Source of the DNA: an uncultured Kofleriaceae bacterium | Lineage (GTDB): Bacteria; Myxococcota_A; Polyangia; Haliangiales; Haliangiaceae | Length of the DNA: 46,026 nucleotides | NCBI GenBank assembly: GCA_964617845.1 | Contig: CAZUAR010000026.1 | Coordinates: 106,821-152,846 of the forward strand | Direction: 5' to 3' | In this document: piece after piece, positions 14,331 to 29,110 of the stretch | Layout: each line of letters opens with the position of its first letter | Position numbering within the stretch: the stretch's first letter is position 1 | Program-made: the position numbers and the translations under genes | The notes under the pieces: generated by a model | Databases searched by the model: none | What the model was told of the DNA's origin: nothing | Seen by the model: the letters and a program-made list of their open reading frames with translations, nothing else

Positions 14331-14870
14331 TCAAGCCGTGCTCGGCGCACGCAGGCGCTGTCGCCGGTGAGCCAGCGCACCGGCGACGAACATCAGGACC
14401 ACGCCGACGAGCAGCGCGGCATCGGCGACGTTGAAGATCGGCCAGCGGTGCTCGCCGATCCGCCAGCGGATGAAGTCCGTCACACCGCCGTGGCGGATCC
14501 GGTCGATCAGGTTGCCGAGCGCACCGCCCGCGACGAGGCCCAGCGCGATCCGCTCGAGGCGCTGATCGGGCCGCAGCCGGTACGCGTAGAAGCCGATGCC
14601 GGCGACCGCGATCGCCGCGAAGATCGCGAGCAGGATCTGGGTGGCGTTGCCGAAGTCGAGCGAGCTGAACGCGGCGCCGGTGTTCATCGCGAGCTCCCAG
14701 TCCCAGTAGCCCTGGATCACCGGCTGCGGGATGCCGTGACACGCGTGCGCGACGAGGTCTGCCGGGACATCGCAACCGGCAGGAACCGGCAGTGACAGCG
14801 CCCACTCTTTCGTCCCCTGATCGAACCCGGCGGTCAGGAGGAAGATCAACACGAACACCGTGCGCCGCAT
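14331..14870 (-). CDS. lspA: Lipoprotein signal peptidase (signal peptidase II)
   Basis: LspA hallmarks 'NTGAAFS', 'GGALGNLIDR' and 'FNVADAALLVGVVLM'. About 180 aa with 4 TM segments. Confidence 0.85.
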   Translation of the reverse strand: MRRTVFVLIFLLTAGFDQGTKEWALSLPVPAGCDVPADLVAHACHGIPQPVIQGYWDWELAMNTGAAFSSLDFGNATQILLAIFAAIAVAGIGFYAYRLRPDQRLERIALGLVAGGALGNLIDRIRHGGVTDFIRWRIGEHRWPIFNVADAALLVGVVLMFVAGALAHRRQRLRAPSTA

Positions 14871-14903
14871 GCGAGGACTACCGTCCGCGCGGCGCCGGCA
14901 TTC

Positions 14904-15653
14904 CTACTCCTTGTCGGACGCGGCGGCCTCGGCGAGCTTCTTCTTCTTCGCCTCGCGCGCGGCCTTCTTCTTCCGCTTCTCTTCCTTCTCGCGTTTGCTC
15001 TCTTTTTGGATGTCGATGAACATCAGGCCGACACCGACGACGAGCGACACGTCCGCGACGTTGAACGTCGGCCACCGCATGAACTTCAGGTCCCACGAGA
15101 CCATGTCCGTGACGGCGCCGAAGTAGATGCGATCGATCAAGTTGCCGACCGCGCCGCCGGCGACGAACGCGAGCGCCCACTGCAAGACTCGCTGATCCGC
15201 GCGGCACTTGCGCAGCATCCAGATCATGCCGGCGACCGCGAGGATGCCGACGACCGAGAGGAAGATGCGCGCCGCGGCCGGGTTCGATCCGAAGAGGCCG
15301 AACGCCGAGCCGGTGTTCATCGACAGCTTCCACGACCAGAAGTCACCGAGGAACTTCACAGACTCCGCGTCGCATCGCGTGACGAGCACCTCGCCGCCAC
15401 CGCGCGCCTTGACGGCGATCGATGGGATCAGGTCGTAGGGGATCGAGCACGGCCCGTTCCCGCCGTAGCCGGTCGGGTGCACGGTGTCGGCGAGCGCGGA
15501 GCGCGACCAGATCTTCGTCACCTGATCGGCGACGAGGTTCACCAGCGCGACGATGCCGAAGATCTTCCATCGCTTGTCGTCGGACTTGTCGACGACCGCA
15601 GCAGCGGGCTTGTCGTCCGTCTCGGTCTCGTCCTTGTCGTCGGCCATCGTCAC
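14904..15653 (-). CDS. lspA: Lipoprotein signal peptidase paralog with acidic N-terminal extension and Lys-rich C-terminal tail
   Basis: 'NTGSAFG', 'GGAVGNLIDR' and 'FNVADVSLVVGVGLMF' match LspA. It ends in a 'KESKREKEEKRKKKAAREAKKKK' tail. Its start overlaps the ileS stop by 4 nt. Confidence 0.85.
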   Translation of the reverse strand: MTMADDKDETETDDKPAAAVVDKSDDKRWKIFGIVALVNLVADQVTKIWSRSALADTVHPTGYGGNGPCSIPYDLIPSIAVKARGGGEVLVTRCDAESVKFLGDFWSWKLSMNTGSAFGLFGSNPAAARIFLSVVGILAVAGMIWMLRKCRADQRVLQWALAFVAGGAVGNLIDRIYFGAVTDMVSWDLKFMRWPTFNVADVSLVVGVGLMFIDIQKESKREKEEKRKKKAAREAKKKKLAEAAASDKE

Positions 15654-18571
15654 GATCCCTTTAGCGCGGTGGCGCAGCGATCACAAACGTCCGGGGGATC
15701 GACCGCGAGCTGATCGTAGTGCTTCCAGCACCGCTCGCACCGCGGCCCCGCGTGGTCGGTGACCTTCACGCCGTCGGCCGCGGCCCTCGCGAGCTGCACG
15801 CTCGACACGATGAACAGATCGGGCAGCTCGTCGAGCAAGCTCTGCAGCGCGTCGTACTGCCCCTCGTCGGAGACCTCGAGGATGACGCTCGCGTCGACGG
15901 ACTTCTTCTTCTGCGCGCGGAACGGCTCGACCGCCTTGGTCACGCGTTCGCGCCACGCGAGTGCGTGCTGCAGCGCCGTGATGCGGATCGCCGTGGTCGC
16001 GTCCACGGGCGGCTGCGCGTCGGAGAACGACGCGACGTGCACGCTCTCGGGATCCCCCGCGAGCTTGGGCATGTACTGCCAGATGTCCTCGGCGGTGAAC
16101 GACAGGATCGGCGCCATGATCGTCACGATCGCGCGCAGCGCCTCGTACATCACGACCTGCGCGGCGCGGCGGCGCGGCGAGTCCTCGGCGTCGCTGTAGA
16201 GGCGATCCTTGGTCACGTCGCCGTAGAGCGCCGACAGATCGACGGTGACGAGCTGCACGAGCTCGCGATGCACGACGTGCAGCTCGTACTTCTGGTACGC
16301 CTCGCGCGCGGTGCGAACGAACGAATCGATCTGCGCGAGCATGTACTGATCGACGACCTGCCCGTCCTTGGCGACGTGCTCGCGCGTGTAGCGGTTGGGA
16401 TCGAAGCCCTTGAGGTTCCCGAGGAGGAACCGCGCCGTGTTGCGCAGCTTGCGATACCACTCGGCGAGGCCGCCCTTGCCGTCGTTGCCGTACAGCGCGG
16501 TCTGCGAGTACGGGATGTCGGCGCGGAACTCCGTCGAGGCGACCCACAGGCGGAACAGCTCGGCGCCGCTCTTCTTGATGATGTCCTCGGGCGGCACGTA
16601 CTTGATCTCGATGCCCTCGGCCTTCGCCTTCGCGATGTCGCTCTTCGAGTACGGCTTGCCCGTCGCGCCATCGACGACGAAGCCGTGCGTGATCACCTGA
16701 CGGTACGGCGCGCGGCCCTTCACGCCGATCGCCGCGAGCAGCGACGAGTGGAACCAGCCGCGGTGCTGGTCGCTGCCCTCGAGGTAGACGTCGATGTTCT
16801 CGTGGTCCTTGCCCTCGTCGCCGCCGCGATGCTCCATCGCGAGCCACGACACGCCGGACTCGAACCAGACGTCGACGATGTCCTTCTCGCGCTCGAGCTT
16901 CTCGCCCGCGGCCCCGCACTTCGTGCACTTCGTGCCCGGCGGCAACAGCTCGGTGACCGTGCGCGTCCACCACGCGTCGGCACCTTCCTTGGCGAAGATG
17001 TCGGCGACGTAGTCCATCGTGTCGGCGTCCGCGTGCTCGGAGCCGCACGCGGTGCAGTAGAACGCGGGGATCGGCGTGCCCCACAGGCGCTGCCGCGACA
17101 GCACCCAGTCGGGGCGGTTCGCGATCATCGCGTAGATCCGATCGTGGCCCCACGGCGGCACCCACGTCGTCTGATCGATCTCGGCGAGCGCCTTCTGGCG
17201 GAAGCCGTCGTGGTCCATCTCGATGAACCACTGCGGCGTCGCGCGGAACACGATCGGCTGCTTGCAGCGCCAGCAGTGCTGGTAGCTGTGGCGGATCGCG
17301 TCCGTCGGCGGGTTCAACAGATACCCGTTGTCGTGCAGCCACGACACGATCACCGGGTTCGCCTCGTTCGTGCTCTTGCCCGCGAGGTCGATCACCTCGG
17401 GCCCGCCCTCGAGCATCACACCGCCGACGTAGCGCGCGCTGTCGTCGAGCGGCGCGTACGCAGGCAGATCGTGCGCCGTGCCCGTCTTGTAGTCATCCGC
17501 GCCGTGACCGGGCGCCGTGTGCACGAGCCCGGTACCGGCCTCGGCGGTCACGTAGTCCGCGAACCACAGGCGCCACACCTTGTCGGCCGGCACGCCGTCG
17601 GGCGCGCCGCGCACGAACGGGTGCTGGTAGCGCCCGCCCTCGAGCGACTTCATCTGCGCGGGCGTGATCTCGACCGCGCCGGAGCCAAGAAGATCGATCG
17701 ACCCGCCGATCGCCGTCACGAACGCCTCGGCGAGCTCCTTCGCGACGATCAATGACTCGCCCGGATCCTTCGGGTTCGGCACCGCGACGTACGTGAACTG
17801 CGGATGCGCGACGATCGCGAGGTTCGCGGGGAGCGTCCAGGGCGTCGTCGTCCAGATGACGTACGCGAGGCGGCGTCCCTCGAGCTCTTGCGGCAACGAG
17901 CCGCGATCGACGAGCGGCATGCGCACGTAGACGGACGGCGACGTCTTGTCCTTGTACTCGACCTCGGCCTCGGCGAGCGCCGTCTTGTCGACCGGGCACC
18001 ACGACACCGGCTTCTTGCCGCGATAGAGGAAGCCCTTGCGCGCGAACACGGCGAGCGCCTTCGCGATCGCGCCCTCGTACGACGGATCGAGCGTGAGGTA
18101 CGGACGCTCCCAGTCGCCGAGCACGCCGAGTCGCTTGAACTCGTTGCGCTGGATGTCGACGTACTTCATCGCGTACTCGCGACACGTCGCGCGCACCTGC
18201 GCGGGCGTCATCCCCGCGCGCGTGGCCTTGAGCTCGCGCTCGACGGCGAGCTCGATCGGCAGGCCGTGCGTGTCCCAGCCGGGAACGTACGGTGTGCGGA
18301 AGCCGGCCATCGAGCGCGACTTCACGACGATGTCCTTCAGGATCTTGTTGAGGATGTGGCCGTAGTGAATGTTGCCGTTCGAGTACGGCGGGCCATCGTG
18401 CAGGATGAACAGCGGCGCGCCCGCGCGTGACGCCTGGATCTGCTGGTAGAGACCGATGCGATCCCACTGGGCGAGGATCTCGGGCTCGCGCGTCGCGAGA
18501 TCTCCTCGCATGGGAAAAGGCGTATCCGGGAGGATGACGGTGTCCTTGTATTTGGACTGGCCCGACGACAT
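15650..18571 (-). CDS. ileS: Isoleucine--tRNA ligase
   Basis: Class I 'HYGH' ('NGNIHYGHILNK') and 'KMSKS'-region motifs. The 'TLNLPxTxFPMRGDL'-type N-terminus and a C-terminal Zn finger 'CERCWKHY...CDRC' are present. The 973-aa length fits IleS. Confidence 0.95.
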   Translation of the reverse strand: MSSGQSKYKDTVILPDTPFPMRGDLATREPEILAQWDRIGLYQQIQASRAGAPLFILHDGPPYSNGNIHYGHILNKILKDIVVKSRSMAGFRTPYVPGWDTHGLPIELAVERELKATRAGMTPAQVRATCREYAMKYVDIQRNEFKRLGVLGDWERPYLTLDPSYEGAIAKALAVFARKGFLYRGKKPVSWCPVDKTALAEAEVEYKDKTSPSVYVRMPLVDRGSLPQELEGRRLAYVIWTTTPWTLPANLAIVAHPQFTYVAVPNPKDPGESLIVAKELAEAFVTAIGGSIDLLGSGAVEITPAQMKSLEGGRYQHPFVRGAPDGVPADKVWRLWFADYVTAEAGTGLVHTAPGHGADDYKTGTAHDLPAYAPLDDSARYVGGVMLEGGPEVIDLAGKSTNEANPVIVSWLHDNGYLLNPPTDAIRHSYQHCWRCKQPIVFRATPQWFIEMDHDGFRQKALAEIDQTTWVPPWGHDRIYAMIANRPDWVLSRQRLWGTPIPAFYCTACGSEHADADTMDYVADIFAKEGADAWWTRTVTELLPPGTKCTKCGAAGEKLEREKDIVDVWFESGVSWLAMEHRGGDEGKDHENIDVYLEGSDQHRGWFHSSLLAAIGVKGRAPYRQVITHGFVVDGATGKPYSKSDIAKAKAEGIEIKYVPPEDIIKKSGAELFRLWVASTEFRADIPYSQTALYGNDGKGGLAEWYRKLRNTARFLLGNLKGFDPNRYTREHVAKDGQVVDQYMLAQIDSFVRTAREAYQKYELHVVHRELVQLVTVDLSALYGDVTKDRLYSDAEDSPRRRAAQVVMYEALRAIVTIMAPILSFTAEDIWQYMPKLAGDPESVHVASFSDAQPPVDATTAIRITALQHALAWRERVTKAVEPFRAQKKKSVDASVILEVSDEGQYDALQSLLDELPDLFIVSSVQLARAAADGVKVTDHAGPRCERCWKHYDQLAVDPPDVCDRCATALKGS

Positions 18572-19247: not shown

Positions 19248-20039
19248 ATGCGACGGATGGCCCTGCTCATCGCCGCAGCACTGGTGTTCGCCTCGGCGAG
19301 CCCCGTGATGGCGGGCTCGAAAGCAAATGCGACCCAAGCTCGCAAAGCCAAAGCCAAGGCCAAGGGAACGAGCAAGCATACCCGGAAGTCCGCGAACGAC
19401 AAGGGCACGATGAAGCAGTGCTCGACGCGCAAGGGCAAGCGCAAGTGCAAGCGCGTCGCGGTGTTCCAGGGCCACGGAGCGTCCCAGTCGTCTCTCCGTA
19501 AAGAGGAGCTGCCCAAGCCCTCGGGCAACGTGTGGCTCTATGCCGAGAACCTCGCCGAAGAAGCGAAGGTGAACATCTACAAGCCGGACGGAACGTTCGA
19601 CGACGCGGCGCTCGCCAAGCTCGACGAGCTGTTCCGCTGCCGCCAGACCGGTGAGGTCCGCGCGGTTCGTCCCGAGCTCTACGAGCAGCTGTCGCGGATC
19701 TCGGATCACTTCGGCGGCGACAAGCGCGTCGAGCTCATCAGCGGCTTCCGCTTCGCGGAGCGGTCGTCGAGCCGCCACTTCCACGCATCGGCGATGGACA
19801 TCCGCATCAAGGGCGTCTCGATCCGCGAGATGTACAAGTACGCCGAGTCGCTCGACGGCGGCGACATGGGCATCGGGCTCTACCCGACGAGCAACTTCAT
19901 CCACGTCGACTACCGCGCGCCCGGCGAGCGGAGCTATCGCTGGACGGACTGGTCGGGACACAGCAAGGGCAAGAAGAGCAAGAAGTCGAAGAAGAAGCCG
20001 ACGAACCGCACGCAGCCCGCGCGCAAGCCGGTCTCGTAG
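19248..20039 (+). CDS. Secreted DUF882/YcbK-like peptidase M15A family protein with Lys-rich N-terminal region
   Basis: Signal peptide present. 'RHFHASAMDIRI' and 'GIGLYPTSNFIHVDYR' match the YcbK/DUF882 metallopeptidase fold. The leader region lies in a lower-GC intergenic stretch. Confidence 0.75.
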   Translation: MRRMALLIAAALVFASASPVMAGSKANATQARKAKAKAKGTSKHTRKSANDKGTMKQCSTRKGKRKCKRVAVFQGHGASQSSLRKEELPKPSGNVWLYAENLAEEAKVNIYKPDGTFDDAALAKLDELFRCRQTGEVRAVRPELYEQLSRISDHFGGDKRVELISGFRFAERSSSRHFHASAMDIRIKGVSIREMYKYAESLDGGDMGIGLYPTSNFIHVDYRAPGERSYRWTDWSGHSKGKKSKKSKKKPTNRTQPARKPVS

Positions 20040-20368
20040 TGTCCGACGACATCCCCGAGCTATCCGTGGCCGAGGTCGCGGCTCGCCTCGGCACGCCTGG
20101 CTTTCACGTGTTCGACAACAACGGACACGGTCGCTGGAAGCGCAGCCACGTGCCGGGCGCGAAGAACCTCAACGCGTACGCGATCGAGCGAAGCGACTTG
20201 CCCGAGGACACGAGCGCGACGCTCGTCTTCTACTGCTCCGGCCCTGGTTGACACAGCTGCCACGCGGGCGCCGGGCGCGCCCTCGAGCTGGGGTTCACGA
20301 ACGTGTTCGTCATGCCCGACGGCATCGCCGGCTGGGAGAGGGCGAAGCAACCCGTCGAGACGGGCTAG
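20039..20368 (+). CDS. Single-domain rhodanese-like sulfurtransferase interrupted by an in-frame TGA at 20249-20251 (selenocysteine candidate or pseudogene)
   Basis: GTG start overlaps the upstream stop ('TAGTG'). The frame reads '...LVFYCSGPG-TGA-HSCHAGAGRALELGFTNVFVMPDGIAGWERAKQP'. The 109-codon length equals a typical rhodanese, and the conserved C-terminal 'GF.NV....GI.GW' follows the TGA in frame. Confidence 0.5.
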
Positions 20369-22545
20369 TCACACGGAACGTCGACGATGCGCGGCTCGGA
20401 ACGATCGAGCGTCGTACCGTCGCCGAGCTGTCCGTAGTGATTGCGGCCCCAGCACACGAGGTCATCGTCGGTCGTGATCGCGCACGTGTACTCGCCGCCG
20501 CTCGCGATGGTGCGCGCCGAGACACCGGGGACGGGACCGGGCGCGCGCGCCGACGTGTAGCTCGGGTCGGCGAGCATGCCGAATGCGTTGTTGCCCCAGC
20601 ACGTGAGCTCCGTGCCCGTGCGCGAGCAGACGTGGCTGTCTCCGACGGCGATCTCGTCGGCGAACAGGCCGAGCGCGATCGGGCGGCGGTTGACGACGTC
20701 GGTGCTCGCGCCGACGAGCTGTCCGTTCTCCGCGTTGCCCCAGCACCAGACCTGGCGCGCCGGATCGATCGCGCAGGTCATGCGATTCGCGAGCGAGAGC
20801 GCGGTCGCAGACGCGAGGTCGACGACCGGCGTCGCGACGAGCGCGTCCGTCGTGGTGCCGCTGCCGAGGCGCCCATCGCCACCCGCGCCCCAGCACGCCA
20901 CCGCGCCGGTCGCGGCGTCGATCGCGCACGTGTGACTCTCGCCGGCGAGGATCGCGCGAACGGAGGACACGCCGACGACCGGCGTCGGAGCCGCGGTTCG
21001 CGCCGAGGCGTTGGAGCCGATCAGCCGACCAGCGCCCCAGCATCGCGCGACGCCTGCCCCGTCGCGCGAGCACGTCATCTCGCCACCGGCGGTGACCTGC
21101 GCGACGTCGGTGAGATCCGGCACCGCGGTGGGTACGAGCGCTTCCGGCGGATCGTCGAAGCCGAGGCGGGCCTCGTTGAGGCCCCAGCATCGAAGCGTCG
21201 CGTCGCCGGTGACCGCGCATGCGTGCTGGGTCCCCATCGACGCGCGCGCGATCCCCGTCGTGACCCGCGTCGGTACGAGCGGTGATGGTGTGTCGCCCGC
21301 GCCGTTCTGGCCGAACGTGCTCGAGCCCCAGCAGATCACGCCGCCGGCCACGACGCCGCAGGCGTGAAAACCGCCGAGCGCGATCTCGGTGACTCCGTCG
21401 ATCGACGAGTCGGTCGCGGTCGCCGTGTCCCGCGGCGAGTTACCGCCGTTGCCGAGCTCGCCACCCTCGTTCTGTCCCCAGCACGCGACGGTGCCGTTCG
21501 CGCGACGAGCGCACGACGAGTTCTGCCCGATCGTCACCTCGACGGCGTTCGCGAGGTTCATCACCGTGACCGGCACCGAGCTCGACATGGAGTCACCGTT
21601 GCCGAGGCGGGACACGTTGCGGCCCCAGCAGCGCGCGCTGCCGTTCGCGAGCACGGCGCACGCGTGGACCGATCCGACGTCGATGTCGACGACGTTCATC
21701 GCGGGCAGCGACACGGCGACGGGGACGTTGCTGTCGGCCTCGGGCTCGCCGTCGCCGAGCTCTCCATTCGCGTCGGAGCCCCAGCAGAACGCGCGATCGG
21801 CCTGATCGATCGCACACGTGATCTGATCGCCCGCGGCGATCCGCTTCGCGCGGAAGTTGTTCGCGACGCGCGCGGGCCGCATCGCGCCGTTGTTGTCGCC
21901 GGTGCCGAGCTGGCCCTGCCCGTTCGCACCCCAGCACCACACGTCGCCGTTCGTGTCGATCGCGCACGTGTGGTTCACCCCCGTCGAGATCTGGATCACC
22001 GCGCCGAGATCGACGACGGGCGTGGGCGCGACGCGATCGATCGAGGTGCCGTCGCCGAGCTGGCCGTTGCGGTTCTTGCCCCAGCACTTCGCGACACCGC
22101 CGTCGATCGCACACGTGGAGGCGGTACCGGCGGACATCCACGACGGTGCGGCGAGGACGATCGAGGCGGGCACGCTCTTGCTGATCGTCGTGCCATCGCC
22201 GAGCTGGCCGTAGGAGTTGTCGCCCCAGCACCACGCCGTGCTCGCGTTCCATGCACACGTGTGGCGATCGCCCGCGGTGATATCGCTGGCGCCGATCGTG
22301 ACGAGCGGCCCCGCGACGGTCGATGACAGGCGGCGCCCGATCCCGAGCTGTCCATGCGTGTCGTCGCCCCAACAATAGAGCGCGCCGTCTTCGCGGACGA
22401 CACAGGCCGTGAACTGGCCGAGCGCGAGCTGCGCGACGCATCCAGGGCCCGTGCCACCGTCACCGGGAGCAACACCCTCGAAGCCGATCCGCCCGCAGCT
22501 CGCGAGCAGCACGACCAGTGCCCACCGACCCAGCATCGATCCCAT
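20365..22545 (-). CDS. RCC1-repeat (seven-bladed beta-propeller-like) lipoprotein
   Basis: More than 10 repeats of 'CWG.N..GQLG.G' ('ALYCWGDDTHGQLGIG', 'AWCWGDNSYGQLGDGT', and others). Start at ATG 22545 gives 'MGSMLGRWALVVLLASC' (lipobox). The ORF portion upstream of that start is non-genic. Confidence 0.75.
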   Translation of the reverse strand: MGSMLGRWALVVLLASCGRIGFEGVAPGDGGTGPGCVAQLALGQFTACVVREDGALYCWGDDTHGQLGIGRRLSSTVAGPLVTIGASDITAGDRHTCAWNASTAWCWGDNSYGQLGDGTTISKSVPASIVLAAPSWMSAGTASTCAIDGGVAKCWGKNRNGQLGDGTSIDRVAPTPVVDLGAVIQISTGVNHTCAIDTNGDVWCWGANGQGQLGTGDNNGAMRPARVANNFRAKRIAAGDQITCAIDQADRAFCWGSDANGELGDGEPEADSNVPVAVSLPAMNVVDIDVGSVHACAVLANGSARCWGRNVSRLGNGDSMSSSVPVTVMNLANAVEVTIGQNSSCARRANGTVACWGQNEGGELGNGGNSPRDTATATDSSIDGVTEIALGGFHACGVVAGGVICWGSSTFGQNGAGDTPSPLVPTRVTTGIARASMGTQHACAVTGDATLRCWGLNEARLGFDDPPEALVPTAVPDLTDVAQVTAGGEMTCSRDGAGVARCWGAGRLIGSNASARTAAPTPVVGVSSVRAILAGESHTCAIDAATGAVACWGAGGDGRLGSGTTTDALVATPVVDLASATALSLANRMTCAIDPARQVWCWGNAENGQLVGASTDVVNRRPIALGLFADEIAVGDSHVCSRTGTELTCWGNNAFGMLADPSYTSARAPGPVPGVSARTIASGGEYTCAITTDDDLVCWGRNHYGQLGDGTTLDRSEPRIVDVPCD

Positions 22546-22588
22546 CGTAACACCGCAGGACCACTCGATCTCTACGGCGTAAATTGGT

Positions 22589-23566
22589 GTGACCAGCGCC
22601 CCATGGGCGTGGCAGTATCCGGCCGCTGTGAGCACCTGGTGGAACCAGATCGTCGCTGCTGTCCCGGCGAGCGCGCGTCCCGTGCTCGCGGCGCACGACG
22701 GTCTGGGCAAGAAGGTCGCGGCGGATCTCGCGGCGGTGCGGAAGAAGTGGCCGGAGGGAACGATCACCGACGCGCAGTTCGCCGACGCGCTCGCCCAGCG
22801 AATCGCATCGCAGAAGGATCTCGCGCCCGCGCTCGGCCGCCTGCGCGTCGAGGACCTCTATCTCGCGCTGTGGTGCGCGACCGGTGACGCGCGCGCGATC
22901 TCGGTGTTCGAGCAGGTGCATCGCTCGGACCTCGACGCGGTGCTCGCGCGATTCCGGCGGCTCGCGGTCACGGGAGACGAGCTACGGCAGACGCTGCGCA
23001 TCAAGTTGTTCGTGAAGACGGACACGCGGCCCGCGCAGATCGCGAGCTACTCGGGGTTCGGCTTCTTGCAGAACTGGCTGCGCGTCACGGCGCTGCGTGC
23101 GCTCGTCGACATCGCGCGCAGCGAGAAGGCGCGCAAGCTCGAGGAGCTGCTCGCCGACGACGATCTGATGGGGATGCCCGAGCTCGGGCCCGACATCGCG
23201 GCGAAGTATTCGCGCGAAGAGGTATCGCGCGCGATCAAGGCGGCGTTCGCGCGTGCGGTCGCCGGCCTCGCGCCGCGCCAGCGCAACTTCCTGCGGCACG
23301 CGCAGGTCGACAACCTGACGCTCGACCAGATCGCGAACCTCTACAACATCCACCGCGCGACGGTGGCGCGCACGCTCGCGGCGGCGCGGCAGGAGCTGAC
23401 GGAGATGACGCGCAAGGAGCTCGGCATCCAGCTCGGCATTCCCGACGACGCGCTCGACAGTGTCGTCCGGGCGGCGGACAGCCGCATCGATCTCTCTTTG
23501 TCGCGCGTGTTGAAGGCGCCCGAGCTGGCGGACGGTTCCGAGAGCGAGCTGGACTCGGGGCGATGA
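22589..23566 (+). CDS. ECF-type sigma-70 family factor with extended N-terminus (Ser/Thr-kinase-associated ECF class)
   Basis: Region-2-like segment 'VEDLYLALWCATGDARAISVFEQ'. Region-4 HTH 'LAPRQRNFLRHAQVDNLTLDQIANLYNIHRATVARTLAAARQEL'. GTG start lies directly after a stop codon. The next gene encodes an anti-sigma/kinase. Confidence 0.7.
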   Translation: MTSAPWAWQYPAAVSTWWNQIVAAVPASARPVLAAHDGLGKKVAADLAAVRKKWPEGTITDAQFADALAQRIASQKDLAPALGRLRVEDLYLALWCATGDARAISVFEQVHRSDLDAVLARFRRLAVTGDELRQTLRIKLFVKTDTRPAQIASYSGFGFLQNWLRVTALRALVDIARSEKARKLEELLADDDLMGMPELGPDIAAKYSREEVSRAIKAAFARAVAGLAPRQRNFLRHAQVDNLTLDQIANLYNIHRATVARTLAAARQELTEMTRKELGIQLGIPDDALDSVVRAADSRIDLSLSRVLKAPELADGSESELDSGR

Positions 23567-27605: not shown

Positions 27606-27627
27606 GACATAACGATATCTGTATGTC
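27606..27627. promoter_or_regulatory. Candidate ArsR operator: perfect inverted repeat GACATA-N10-TATGTC in the arsM/arsC divergent region, overlapping the arsC start
   Basis: Read directly. It is the only AT-richer stretch in the 101-bp divergent intergenic region between arsM (start 27521, minus strand) and arsC (start 27623, plus strand). Confidence 0.4.
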
Positions 27628-28063
27628 TATGACATCCGCGGCGCGACCGCCAGGCCTCCTGTTCCTGTGCGTCGCCAACTCGGCACGCAGCCAGATGGCG
27701 GAGGGCCTCGCGCGCTCGATCTTCGGCGATCGCGCCACGGTACAGAGCGCGGGAAGCGCGCCGTCGCGCGTGAACGAGTACGCGATCGAGGCGATGCGCG
27801 AGGTCGGCGTGGATCTGACCGCGCACCGCTCGAAGTCGGTCGACTCGATCGATCCGGCGAGCGTCGATCTCGTGATCACGCTGTGCGCCGAGGAGGTGTG
27901 CCCCGTGTTCCTCGGCACGACGCGTCGCCTTCACTGGCCGATTCCGGATCCGGCGAGCTCCGATCCGGCGCTCTCGCGCGACGAGATGCTCGCCCGCTTC
28001 CGTGCCGCGCGGGACACCATTCGCCAGAAGCTCGAACAGCTCACCGTCGACGGCCTGACCTAG
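27623..28063 (+). CDS. arsC: Arsenate reductase, LMW-PTP (thioredoxin-coupled) family
   Basis: P-loop '[16 protein letters not shown]' (C-x5-R-S). Downstream Cys residues sit in 'TLCAEEVCP'. About 146 aa from ATG 27623. Confidence 0.85.
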
Positions 28064-28070
28064 GAGCGCG

Positions 28071-28442
28071 ATGCAATCGACCCTGACCACCGAAGACCAT
28101 GGCGTGCGGCCGCTGACCAAGCTGTTCCGCGCGCTCGGCGACGAGACACGCATGCGGATCGTCGCGCTGCTCGCGCACGGCGAGCTGTGCGTCTGCCACA
28201 TCGAGACCGCGCTCGAGCTGAGCCAGCCCAACGTCTCGCGCCACCTCGGCATCCTGCGAATGGCCGGCATCGTCGACGCGCGTCGCGATGGAACGTGGGT
28301 CTACTACAAGCTCGCCGAGCAAGAGCACGACGCCGTGCGCGAGGTGCTCGCGACGCTGACGAAGGCCTTCGGTGCCGAGCGTGCGATTCGCGCGGACCAC
28401 GCGAAGCTCCGCAAGTCGTGCGGTCCCGACGCATGCAAGTGA
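28071..28442 (+). CDS. arsR: ArsR/SmtB family metalloregulatory repressor
   Basis: 'ELCVCHIETALELSQPNVSRHL' combines the As(III)-binding ELCVC motif with a winged HTH. GGAG RBS lies 4 nt upstream. Confidence 0.9.
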   Translation: MQSTLTTEDHGVRPLTKLFRALGDETRMRIVALLAHGELCVCHIETALELSQPNVSRHLGILRMAGIVDARRDGTWVYYKLAEQEHDAVREVLATLTKAFGAERAIRADHAKLRKSCGPDACK

Positions 28443-29110
28443 CCCTCGCGCGCAAGCTCGTCGCGGAGGGCCTCGGGACGGCGCTCCTCGTCGCCGCCGT
28501 CGTCGGCTCGGGGATCATGGCGCAGAGGCTCGCGACGGATCCGGCGACGGCGCTGTTGTGCAACACGCTCGCGACGGGGGCGGCGCTCGTGGCGCTCCTC
28601 TTGATGTTCGGTCCGGTCTCGGGCGCGCAGCTCAATCCAGCGGTCACGCTCGTCATGGCGACCACGCGCGACGTCACGCCACGCGTCGCCGCGGGCTACA
28701 TCGTCGTGCAGGTCGGCGGCGCGATCGCCGGTGCGGTGATCGCGAACACGATGTTCGATCTCGCGCCGATCGCGATCTCGACCACGGCGCGCGCGAGCCT
28801 GTCGTCGCTCGTCAGCGAGTGCGTCGCGACGTTCGGGCTCGTCGGCGTCGTCGTCGCGGTCGGCCGCACGCGCGCCTCCATCGCACCGCTCGCCGTCGCG
28901 GCGTACATCACCGCCGCGTACTGGTTCACCGCGTCGACCTCGTTCGCGAACCCCGCGGTCACCGTGGGTCGCGCGTTCAGCAATACGTTCGCGGGCATCC
29001 ATCCCTCGAGCGTGCTGCCCTTCATCGCCGCACAGCTCTGCGGCGCGATCGCGGGCGGCCTCCTGTTCACGTGGATGGTGCCGAGACCCACGGTGAACGC
29101 GACCGCGTAG
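28433..29110 (+). CDS. aqpS: MIP-family aquaglyceroporin (arsenite channel, AqpS/GlpF-like)
   Basis: Two NPA boxes ('LNPAVTL' and 'ANPAVTVG') and six hydrophobic helices. ATG 28433 overlaps the arsR 3' end. Confidence 0.85.
   Translation: MQVTLARKLVAEGLGTALLVAAVVGSGIMAQRLATDPATALLCNTLATGAALVALLLMFGPVSGAQLNPAVTLVMATTRDVTPRVAAGYIVVQVGGAIAGAVIANTMFDLAPIAISTTARASLSSLVSECVATFGLVGVVVAVGRTRASIAPLAVAAYITAAYWFTASTSFANPAVTVGRAFSNTFAGIHPSSVLPFIAAQLCGAIAGGLLFTWMVPRPTVNATA

Follow-up and report, generated by a model that had tools for sequence, protein, structure and literature searches.

Rhodanese selenoproteins are already known as a class. They have been reported since 2005, under the earlier names "rhodanese-related sulfurtransferase" and "sulfurtransferase COG0607/COG2897" (PMC1088965, PMC1976440, PMC2398784), and a 2026 review of the prokaryotic selenoproteome distinguishes five forms (PMC13188914). 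Form 1, with the motif UxxS (U being selenocysteine, Sec), is represented by Geobacter sulfurreducens WP_010941598.1, forms 2 and 4 show UxxG, form 3 shows CxU (NF041203), and form 5, named TsoB, shows UxxxxU with two Sec residues (NF045694) (PMC13188914). Here we describe a rhodanese gene with one in-frame TGA, found in a stretch of 46,026 nucleotides from an uncultured Kofleriaceae bacterium (contig CAZUAR010000026.1, positions 106,821 to 152,846; this whole stretch is called the window in what follows). It is very probably an intact selenoprotein gene, in which the UGA at 20249–20251 specifies selenocysteine, the hairpin at 20266–20282 is the selenocysteine insertion sequence (SECIS) and the product is a rhodanese.

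Comparison with the described rhodanese selenoproteins

The gene (20039–20368, forward strand) runs from the GTG at 20039 to the TAG at 20366–20368 and comprises 109 codons for a single domain. In the translation of this frame the only TGA is codon 71 (20249–20251), directly preceded by the peptide YCSGPG and followed, in frame, by LELGFTNVFVMPDGIAGWERA. The Pfam profile Rhodanese (PF00581) covers residues 9–101, across the TGA, with an E-value of 1.1e-12 and a score of 48.7 bits versus a cut-off of 22.2. The active-site motif reads C66-S-G-P-G-U71 and then H-S-C74, or C-x4-U-x2-C. The HMMER alignments to YgaP, to the Francisella rhodanese 6mxv and to BH2092 identify the canonical catalytic cysteine as Cys66 (TGC, 20234–20236, forward strand), which is the first residue of the six-residue loop CSGPGU and is invariant in the two alignments A1 and A3. 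The putative Sec71 (20249–20251, forward strand), assigned from the TGA/TGC pattern in relatives, is the sixth and last position of this loop and aligns with the Arg of the YgaP loop CQAGKR. A preliminary description of this DNA, made from the letters alone, had given this frame with its coordinates and flanking peptides, a GGGCGC-CGGGC-GCGCCC hairpin at 20266–20282 and a canonical Cys retained at a distance from the UGA. All of these were found as it described them, the TGA lying five residues after Cys66 in the HMMER alignments. Its statement that rhodaneses are a reported family of bacterial selenoproteins was also correct (PMC1088965, PMC13188914).

The protein of the window resembles forms 1–5 in being a bacterial PF00581 protein with a UGA-encoded Sec in or near the active-site loop, with Cys homologues and with a SECIS hairpin just downstream. 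In forms 2 and 4 the motif UxxG suggests that Sec stands at the position of the catalytic Cys, whereas the window has Cys66 at this position and Sec71 followed by H-S-C. Membership in these two forms was rejected because the catalytic position here is a Cys. The best NCBIfam match was NF041203, rhodanese_LYCAU "(seleno)protein", over profile positions 17–125 of 126. This family is also small and keeps the catalytic Cys with a Sec nearby, but its Sec is located two residues after the Cys (C-A-U) and that of the window five residues after. With 39.5 bits for a cut-off of 115, and a motif C-x4-U and not C-x-U, membership in form 3 was rejected. The rhodanese part of TsoB (NF045694) matches residues 54–108 (E-value 7e-9), and its U-x4-U spacing equals that of Cys66-x4-Sec71, which probably provides a precedent for a Sec at loop position 71. 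TsoB is, however, a DsbD-like fusion with two Sec and 572 model positions, and the window encodes a protein of 109 residues with one Sec and no fusion. The score of 34.2 bits, obtained from the rhodanese part alone, compares with a cut-off of 805, and membership in form 5 was likewise rejected.

None of the NCBIfam models reached its own cut-off for the window rhodanese, and there was no full-length Sec-annotated entry among the best 240 database hits in a collection of 5.8 billion proteins. There is about an even chance that the gene represents an uncatalogued and unannotated form of rhodanese selenoprotein, with the motif C-x4-U-x2-C/S and a Sec at the loop end beside the retained catalytic Cys, and that it is a syntenic core gene of Kofleriaceae-type myxobacteria next to a DUF882 gene, form 1 having been compared by its motif only. 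It is possible that the gene is identical with form 1, known here by its listed motif UxxS only, as some relatives read U-x-x-S. Related Sec forms also occurred elsewhere in the Polyangia and in a single Nitrospiraceae genome.

Codon 71 and the frame beyond it

The search of the 5.8 billion proteins returned 554 relatives of the rhodanese open reading frame (ORF). The best 120 of these 554 relatives showed 76–89% identity and had lengths of 68–87 residues, 119 of them not exceeding 75 residues. The C-terminal end was exactly YC(S/A/T)GPG in all 120, indicating that gene callers stop at the same codon in each. One such short-called relative bears the NCBI label "hypothetical protein IPQ07_43540". 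Full-length homologues were obtained with a profile search; of the 120 best, 119 had a Cys at the position of Sec71, the family motif being YC-x4-C.

The codon itself was compared at the DNA level. The loci came from species-representative genomes (22 loci) and from metagenome contigs (41), and 63 sequences, the window included, spanned the TGA site. The source genomes belonged to Kofleriaceae, Haliangiales, Polyangia and Myxococcales, with one Nitrospiraceae and one Lysobacterales. The codon located five residues after the catalytic Cys was TGA in 50 of the 63 sequences and TGC in the other 13, and no other codon was seen. The preliminary description had asked which codon orthologues carry at this site, and the answer is a pattern of Sec and Cys only. 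An orthologue with the same synteny in the Kofleriaceae metagenome-assembled genome JBFXAI010000016.1 (locus L015, 10001–10330) possessed a TGC; the peptide downstream was changed (CRSCSIAARRA) and the hairpin at the SECIS position was lost. This looks like a conversion from Sec to Cys inside the clade.

After the TGA, the frame continued for approximately 38 more codons in all 63 loci, up to a conserved C-terminus (...LGY.NV..MP.GI.GWEKA..P.E). The ratio of nonsynonymous to synonymous substitution rates (dN/dS), pooled over 17 Kofleriaceae-type genes, was 0.31 for the codons before the TGA and 0.22 for those after it, the latter falling to 0.17 when the hairpin codons were left out. The downstream value of 0.22 and the in-frame conservation imply that the codons beyond the TGA are translated and subject to selection.

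The order isoleucyl-tRNA synthetase (IleRS, reverse strand), dCMP deaminase, DUF882, rhodanese was kept in the approximately 15 loci that extend far enough to reveal it, and the IleRS of the syntenic loci was 63–86% identical to that of the window. The adjacency of the DUF882 and rhodanese genes was observed in about 25 loci. Judged from these sequences, the rhodanese gene can be regarded as an old, stable and syntenic part of Kofleriaceae-type genomes. On a shorter time scale, the 70-residue product of the gene callers occurred unchanged on eight contigs. Four of these, one from GCA_050248555.1 (contig JBFWSC010000082.1, a 99% copy) and the others from three Logan assemblies, were fetched; they were 99–100% identical to the window over 5–20 kb and all had the TGA.

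Elsewhere in the window, TGA was the stop codon of 15 of the 25 well-supported ORFs, among them those of IleRS and dCMP deaminase. TGA being an ordinary stop in these ORFs, the genetic code is not reassigned. A scan of the window showed that the rhodanese TGA was the only convincing in-frame TGA with a coding signature on both sides. In-frame TGAs at 21365 (forward strand), 25711 and 40285 (both reverse strand) had a high GC content at third codon positions on both sides, with flanking peptides that looked non-genic, and were rejected as probable off-frame artefacts of high GC.

The hairpin downstream of the UGA and competing readings

The putative SECIS core (20266–20282, forward strand) consists of a 6-bp stem, GGGCGC/GCGCCC, and the apical loop CGGGC, and was delimited by its fold and by the conservation of its synonymous sites. 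The stem starts at the 15th nucleotide after the TGA and the loop occupies nucleotides 24–28, counting the U of the UGA as 1. A tentative extension to 20254–20290 (forward strand) was seen in the minimum free energy (MFE) structure of the window only. It would add two pairs around a C/U mismatch (20263–20264 with 20284–20285) and a lower helix of 5 bp (20254–20258 with 20286–20290); no conservation of this lower helix was found in the alignment of the relatives.

The RNA was evaluated by locating the hairpin in each sequence and by measuring the entropy of synonymous sites, in place of counting pairs in a fixed register. Among 28 distinct Kofleriaceae-type genes, the third-position entropies of the hairpin codons GGC, GCC, GGG, CGC and GCC (+6 to +10) were 0, 0, 0, 0.22 and 0.68 bits, respectively. 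The 39 other fourfold-degenerate sites had a mean of 1.05 bits and a minimum of 0.22, and the hairpin codons were lower (Mann–Whitney p = 6e-4). The only three fourfold columns of the gene with zero entropy were located in the hairpin codons. The synonymous variants within the hairpin were C to U changes alone, with the G.U pairs preserved, and GGG, which is a minor codon in the rest of the gene, was the only codon used for the glycine of the loop. This pattern points to a hairpin constrained at the RNA level, and the conservation of the loop nucleotides at synonymous sites suggests recognition by a protein in a sequence-specific manner.

In the wider family, a hairpin of 4–9 bp with a loop starting at nucleotide 24–25 was present in 46 of 46 distinct Sec-form sequences. 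The stems varied by subfamily (GGGCGC/GCGCCC, GGCGC/GCGCC, CGCCGC/GCGGCG, GCUGC/GCAGC, GGCCGCC/GGCGGUC and GGCGCG/CGCGCU) and the loops were CGGGC, CGUGC, GGUC, CGGGU or GGUCG. In 12 Cys forms the stems had 2–6 bp at scattered positions. The median contiguous stem was 6 bp in the Sec forms versus 4 bp in the Cys forms (p = 5e-7, phylogeny being ignored), and the mean local MFE was −12.7 versus −8.7 kcal/mol. The SECIS of Escherichia coli fdhF similarly is a hairpin that directly follows the UGA, and its apical loop is small and contains G. This loop, GGUC, is at nucleotides 22–25, compared with a loop start at 24–25 in the rhodanese family, in which six distinct sequences have exactly the loop GGUC. 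The position, and in these six sequences also the loop, thus agrees with the classical SECIS. Unlike fdhF, the hairpin of the window has the loop CGGGC, a stem of pure GC and no evident bulged U, and is a candidate SelB site only. It is the comparative evidence, and not the free energy, that lifts the hairpin far above chance, and within it the conservation of synonymous sites and the position of the hairpin are decisive. The recoding of SECIS type put forward in the preliminary description gains from the constraint at synonymous sites and from the other hairpins at the same offset in divergent Sec forms. Taken at the sequence level, the locus appears to combine what characterises bacterial selenoproteins: a UGA/Cys pattern, coding conservation downstream, and a conserved stem-loop with a small G-containing loop.

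Several points weigh against reading this gene as a selenoprotein gene. The comparison loci were all recruited through the peptide SATLVFYC, so that a part of the family was sampled. With E. coli queries, SelA, SelB and SelD gave no tblastn match at E ≤ 1e-3 in the window and the 22 genome loci, which represent a small part of each genome. No tRNA-Sec was found by ARAGORN, which reported no tRNA in the 46-kb window and none of Sec type in the 22 loci. The MFE of the hairpin showed no excess of stability over dinucleotide shuffles (z = +0.42, in a sequence of 70% GC), and only a slight one over synonymous recodings, of which 300 were made for each sequence (Sec forms, mean z = −0.6; Cys forms, −0.28). 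This weak signal is explained by the intrinsic self-complementarity of Ala, Gly and Arg codons in a genome of 70% GC. Fixed-register covariation was also weak: 75.9% of the cells were paired, 7 of 500 shuffles were as high, and a slide of +2 still paired 67%. Here the explanation is that GC repeats can pair in a number of registers and that the registers of the subfamilies are shifted by 1–2 nucleotides. A scan of the whole window with Rfam gave no match at the gathering thresholds. Finally, the chemistry of Cys66 and Sec71 discussed below is one that we infer.

A 97-nucleotide "tRNA-Ala(cgc)" reported by ARAGORN in locus L020 (10057–10153, reverse strand), approximately 2 kb from the rhodanese gene, was set aside as a probable false positive in GC-rich, coding-looking sequence. 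In the window, ten further ORFs corresponded to housekeeping genes only, according to Pfam. Among the Sec-utilizing organisms of PMC5029168 (supplementary file 3, cited there as Table S2) is Haliangium ochraceum, with three selenoproteins, and the same listing includes Plesiocystis, Myxococcus and Anaeromyxobacter (PMC5029168 supplementary file 3). The NCBI taxonomy places Haliangium in the Kofleriaceae.

The hairpin could also act independently of SelB, by promoting a near-cognate decoding of the UGA (e.g., as Trp or Cys) with no insertion of selenocysteine. In some systems readthrough can be aided by RNA structure that follows the stop codon, and such a process would agree with the Sec machinery not being seen in the window and the 22 loci. 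It seems nevertheless quite improbable, as Cys is the sole sense codon at the site, which is the classical Sec/Cys signature. The position of the hairpin at the SECIS offset, its G-containing loops of 4–5 nucleotides, of which some equal the GGUC of fdhF, and the loop nucleotides kept at synonymous sites all speak against it as well, and the family Kofleriaceae includes a documented Sec user.

Still less can be said for a UGA that is a real stop, with a functional N-terminal fragment of 70 residues and a downstream conservation due to an RNA element or to a separately translated peptide. This is very improbable, although the products in public gene calls do have about 70 residues and the hairpin might in principle be regulatory or terminator-like. 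A 70-residue product would end within the active-site loop, without the helix, the strand and the GW motif that complete the rhodanese fold. The conservation downstream is patterned by codons, with synonymous changes and retained amino acids, and the Cys-form homologues are contiguous full-length proteins. The first start codon after the TGA, Met92 (ATG, 20312–20314), is already inside the conserved stretch.

Lastly, a recent nonsense mutation or an error of sequencing or assembly, the fallback of the preliminary description, in which the gene would be a newly formed pseudogene and the hairpin would simply follow from its GC-rich codons, could appeal to a free energy no better than that of shuffles and to gene callers and NCBI annotation taking the TGA as a stop, but is extremely unlikely and was refuted by independent assemblies carrying the TGA at 99–100% identity and by its presence in 50 of 63 loci of a family-level clade with IleRS identities down to 63%, the remainder being TGC, in addition to a downstream frame intact everywhere with a dN/dS of 0.22, constrained synonymous sites in the hairpin, and the implausibility of an error common to many samples and divergences.

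The active-site loop and the gene neighbourhood

The structure of the loop was considered in the AlphaFold model of the Cys orthologue P0122, for which the predicted local distance difference test (pLDDT) is 96.9. A strand at 59–63 is followed by the loop at 64–70 and a helix at 71–81, and the top matches of the model in the PDB were all rhodaneses. The score above the profile cut-off, the modelled alpha/beta fold and the catalytic Cys in the loop between strand and helix assign the product to the rhodanese homology domain, as far as the model of the orthologue can be transferred. The closest solved fold was that of BH2092 of Bacillus halodurans (PDB 3nhv, 3o3w), with a template modelling (TM) score of 0.88 and a root-mean-square deviation of 1.4 Å. 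Its loop, YCWGPAC, is of the C-x4-C type and has a Cys in place of the Sec of YCSGPGU in the window, for an identity of approximately 21%. BH2092 is a structural-genomics rhodanese of uncharacterized function.

Cys74 (TGC, 20258–20260, forward strand), placed by the sequences and by the orthologue model in the first turn of the helix following the loop, closes a U-x-x-C motif. Position 74 was a Cys or a Ser in most Sec-form relatives, with U-x-x-S in the relatives L017, L020, L022 and L064 and U-x-x-C in the window. Such UxxC/UxxS motifs are a typical feature of redox selenoproteins (PMC1976440). No signal peptide was found in the Kofleriaceae-type members, which start directly at the rhodanese domain. 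Signal-like or lipoprotein-like N-termini were seen on distant members from Polyangia and Nitrospiraceae (L016, L017, L018, L021 and L022), and the family may occupy different cell compartments.

We propose that the UGA at 20249–20251 is read as selenocysteine during translation. In this model, which follows the established one of E. coli, the hairpin at 20266–20282 would bring SelB, loaded with Sec-tRNA(Sec), to a ribosome that has paused on this codon. The product would be a single-domain rhodanese of 109 residues, with the canonical catalytic Cys kept and with the Sec filling the loop position at which homologues hold a second, invariant Cys. In the rhodanese/Cdc25 superfamily the six-residue loop cradles the catalytic Cys, and Cys66 and Sec71 would therefore be able to form a selenylsulfide. 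The most likely chemistry is that of a redox-active selenylsulfide pair, to which residue 74 (Cys or Ser, in a UxxC/UxxS motif) would contribute in many members. A persulfide or perselenide on the loop would be resolved or relayed by the Cys66–Sec71 pair, and the protein would thereby represent a C-x4-C type of rhodanese with increased reactivity.

This hypothesis has consequences for annotation. Current pipelines cut the gene at the UGA, and the catalytic half of the domain would be missing from the databases for a whole myxobacterial clade. If the proposal is true, hundreds of public entries are mis-called as hypothetical proteins of 70 residues, and these would be corrected by a purpose-built profile that flags the Sec. 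In Kofleriaceae-type genomes, the gene would also clearly mark the decoding of Sec. For the widespread C-x4-C rhodaneses (e.g., BH2092, PDB 3nhv), the second Cys is indicated as a redox-active partner of the catalytic one. Since evolution swaps redox-active cysteines for Sec, this offers a testable mechanism for an uncharacterized subfamily.

The conserved upstream neighbour of the rhodanese gene is the DUF882/Peptidase_M15_2 gene (19248–20039, forward strand; Pfam E-value 1.8e-17). The preliminary description had already noted this DUF882 neighbour and its TAGTG overlap, and both the profile match and the base shared by the DUF882 stop TAG and the rhodanese start GTG bear it out. The rhodanese gene is probably co-transcribed and translationally coupled with the peptidase gene. 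On the other side, the rhodanese stop codon overlaps that of a convergent RCC1-repeat gene (20365–22767, reverse strand) in the palindrome CTAG at 20365–20368, and there is zero intergenic room for a terminator between the two genes. An ars-like trio is located approximately 7 kb downstream, at about 27608–29095 (L066 17582–19069), and consists of a low-molecular-weight phosphatase (LMWPc) of ArsC type, an ArsR-type HTH_5 regulator and a channel of the MIP family; a link of this trio to the rhodanese gene is speculative. Directly downstream of IleRS, two tandem Peptidase_A8 paralogues (signal peptidase II, LspA) occupy positions 14331–14903 and 14904–15680 on the reverse strand.

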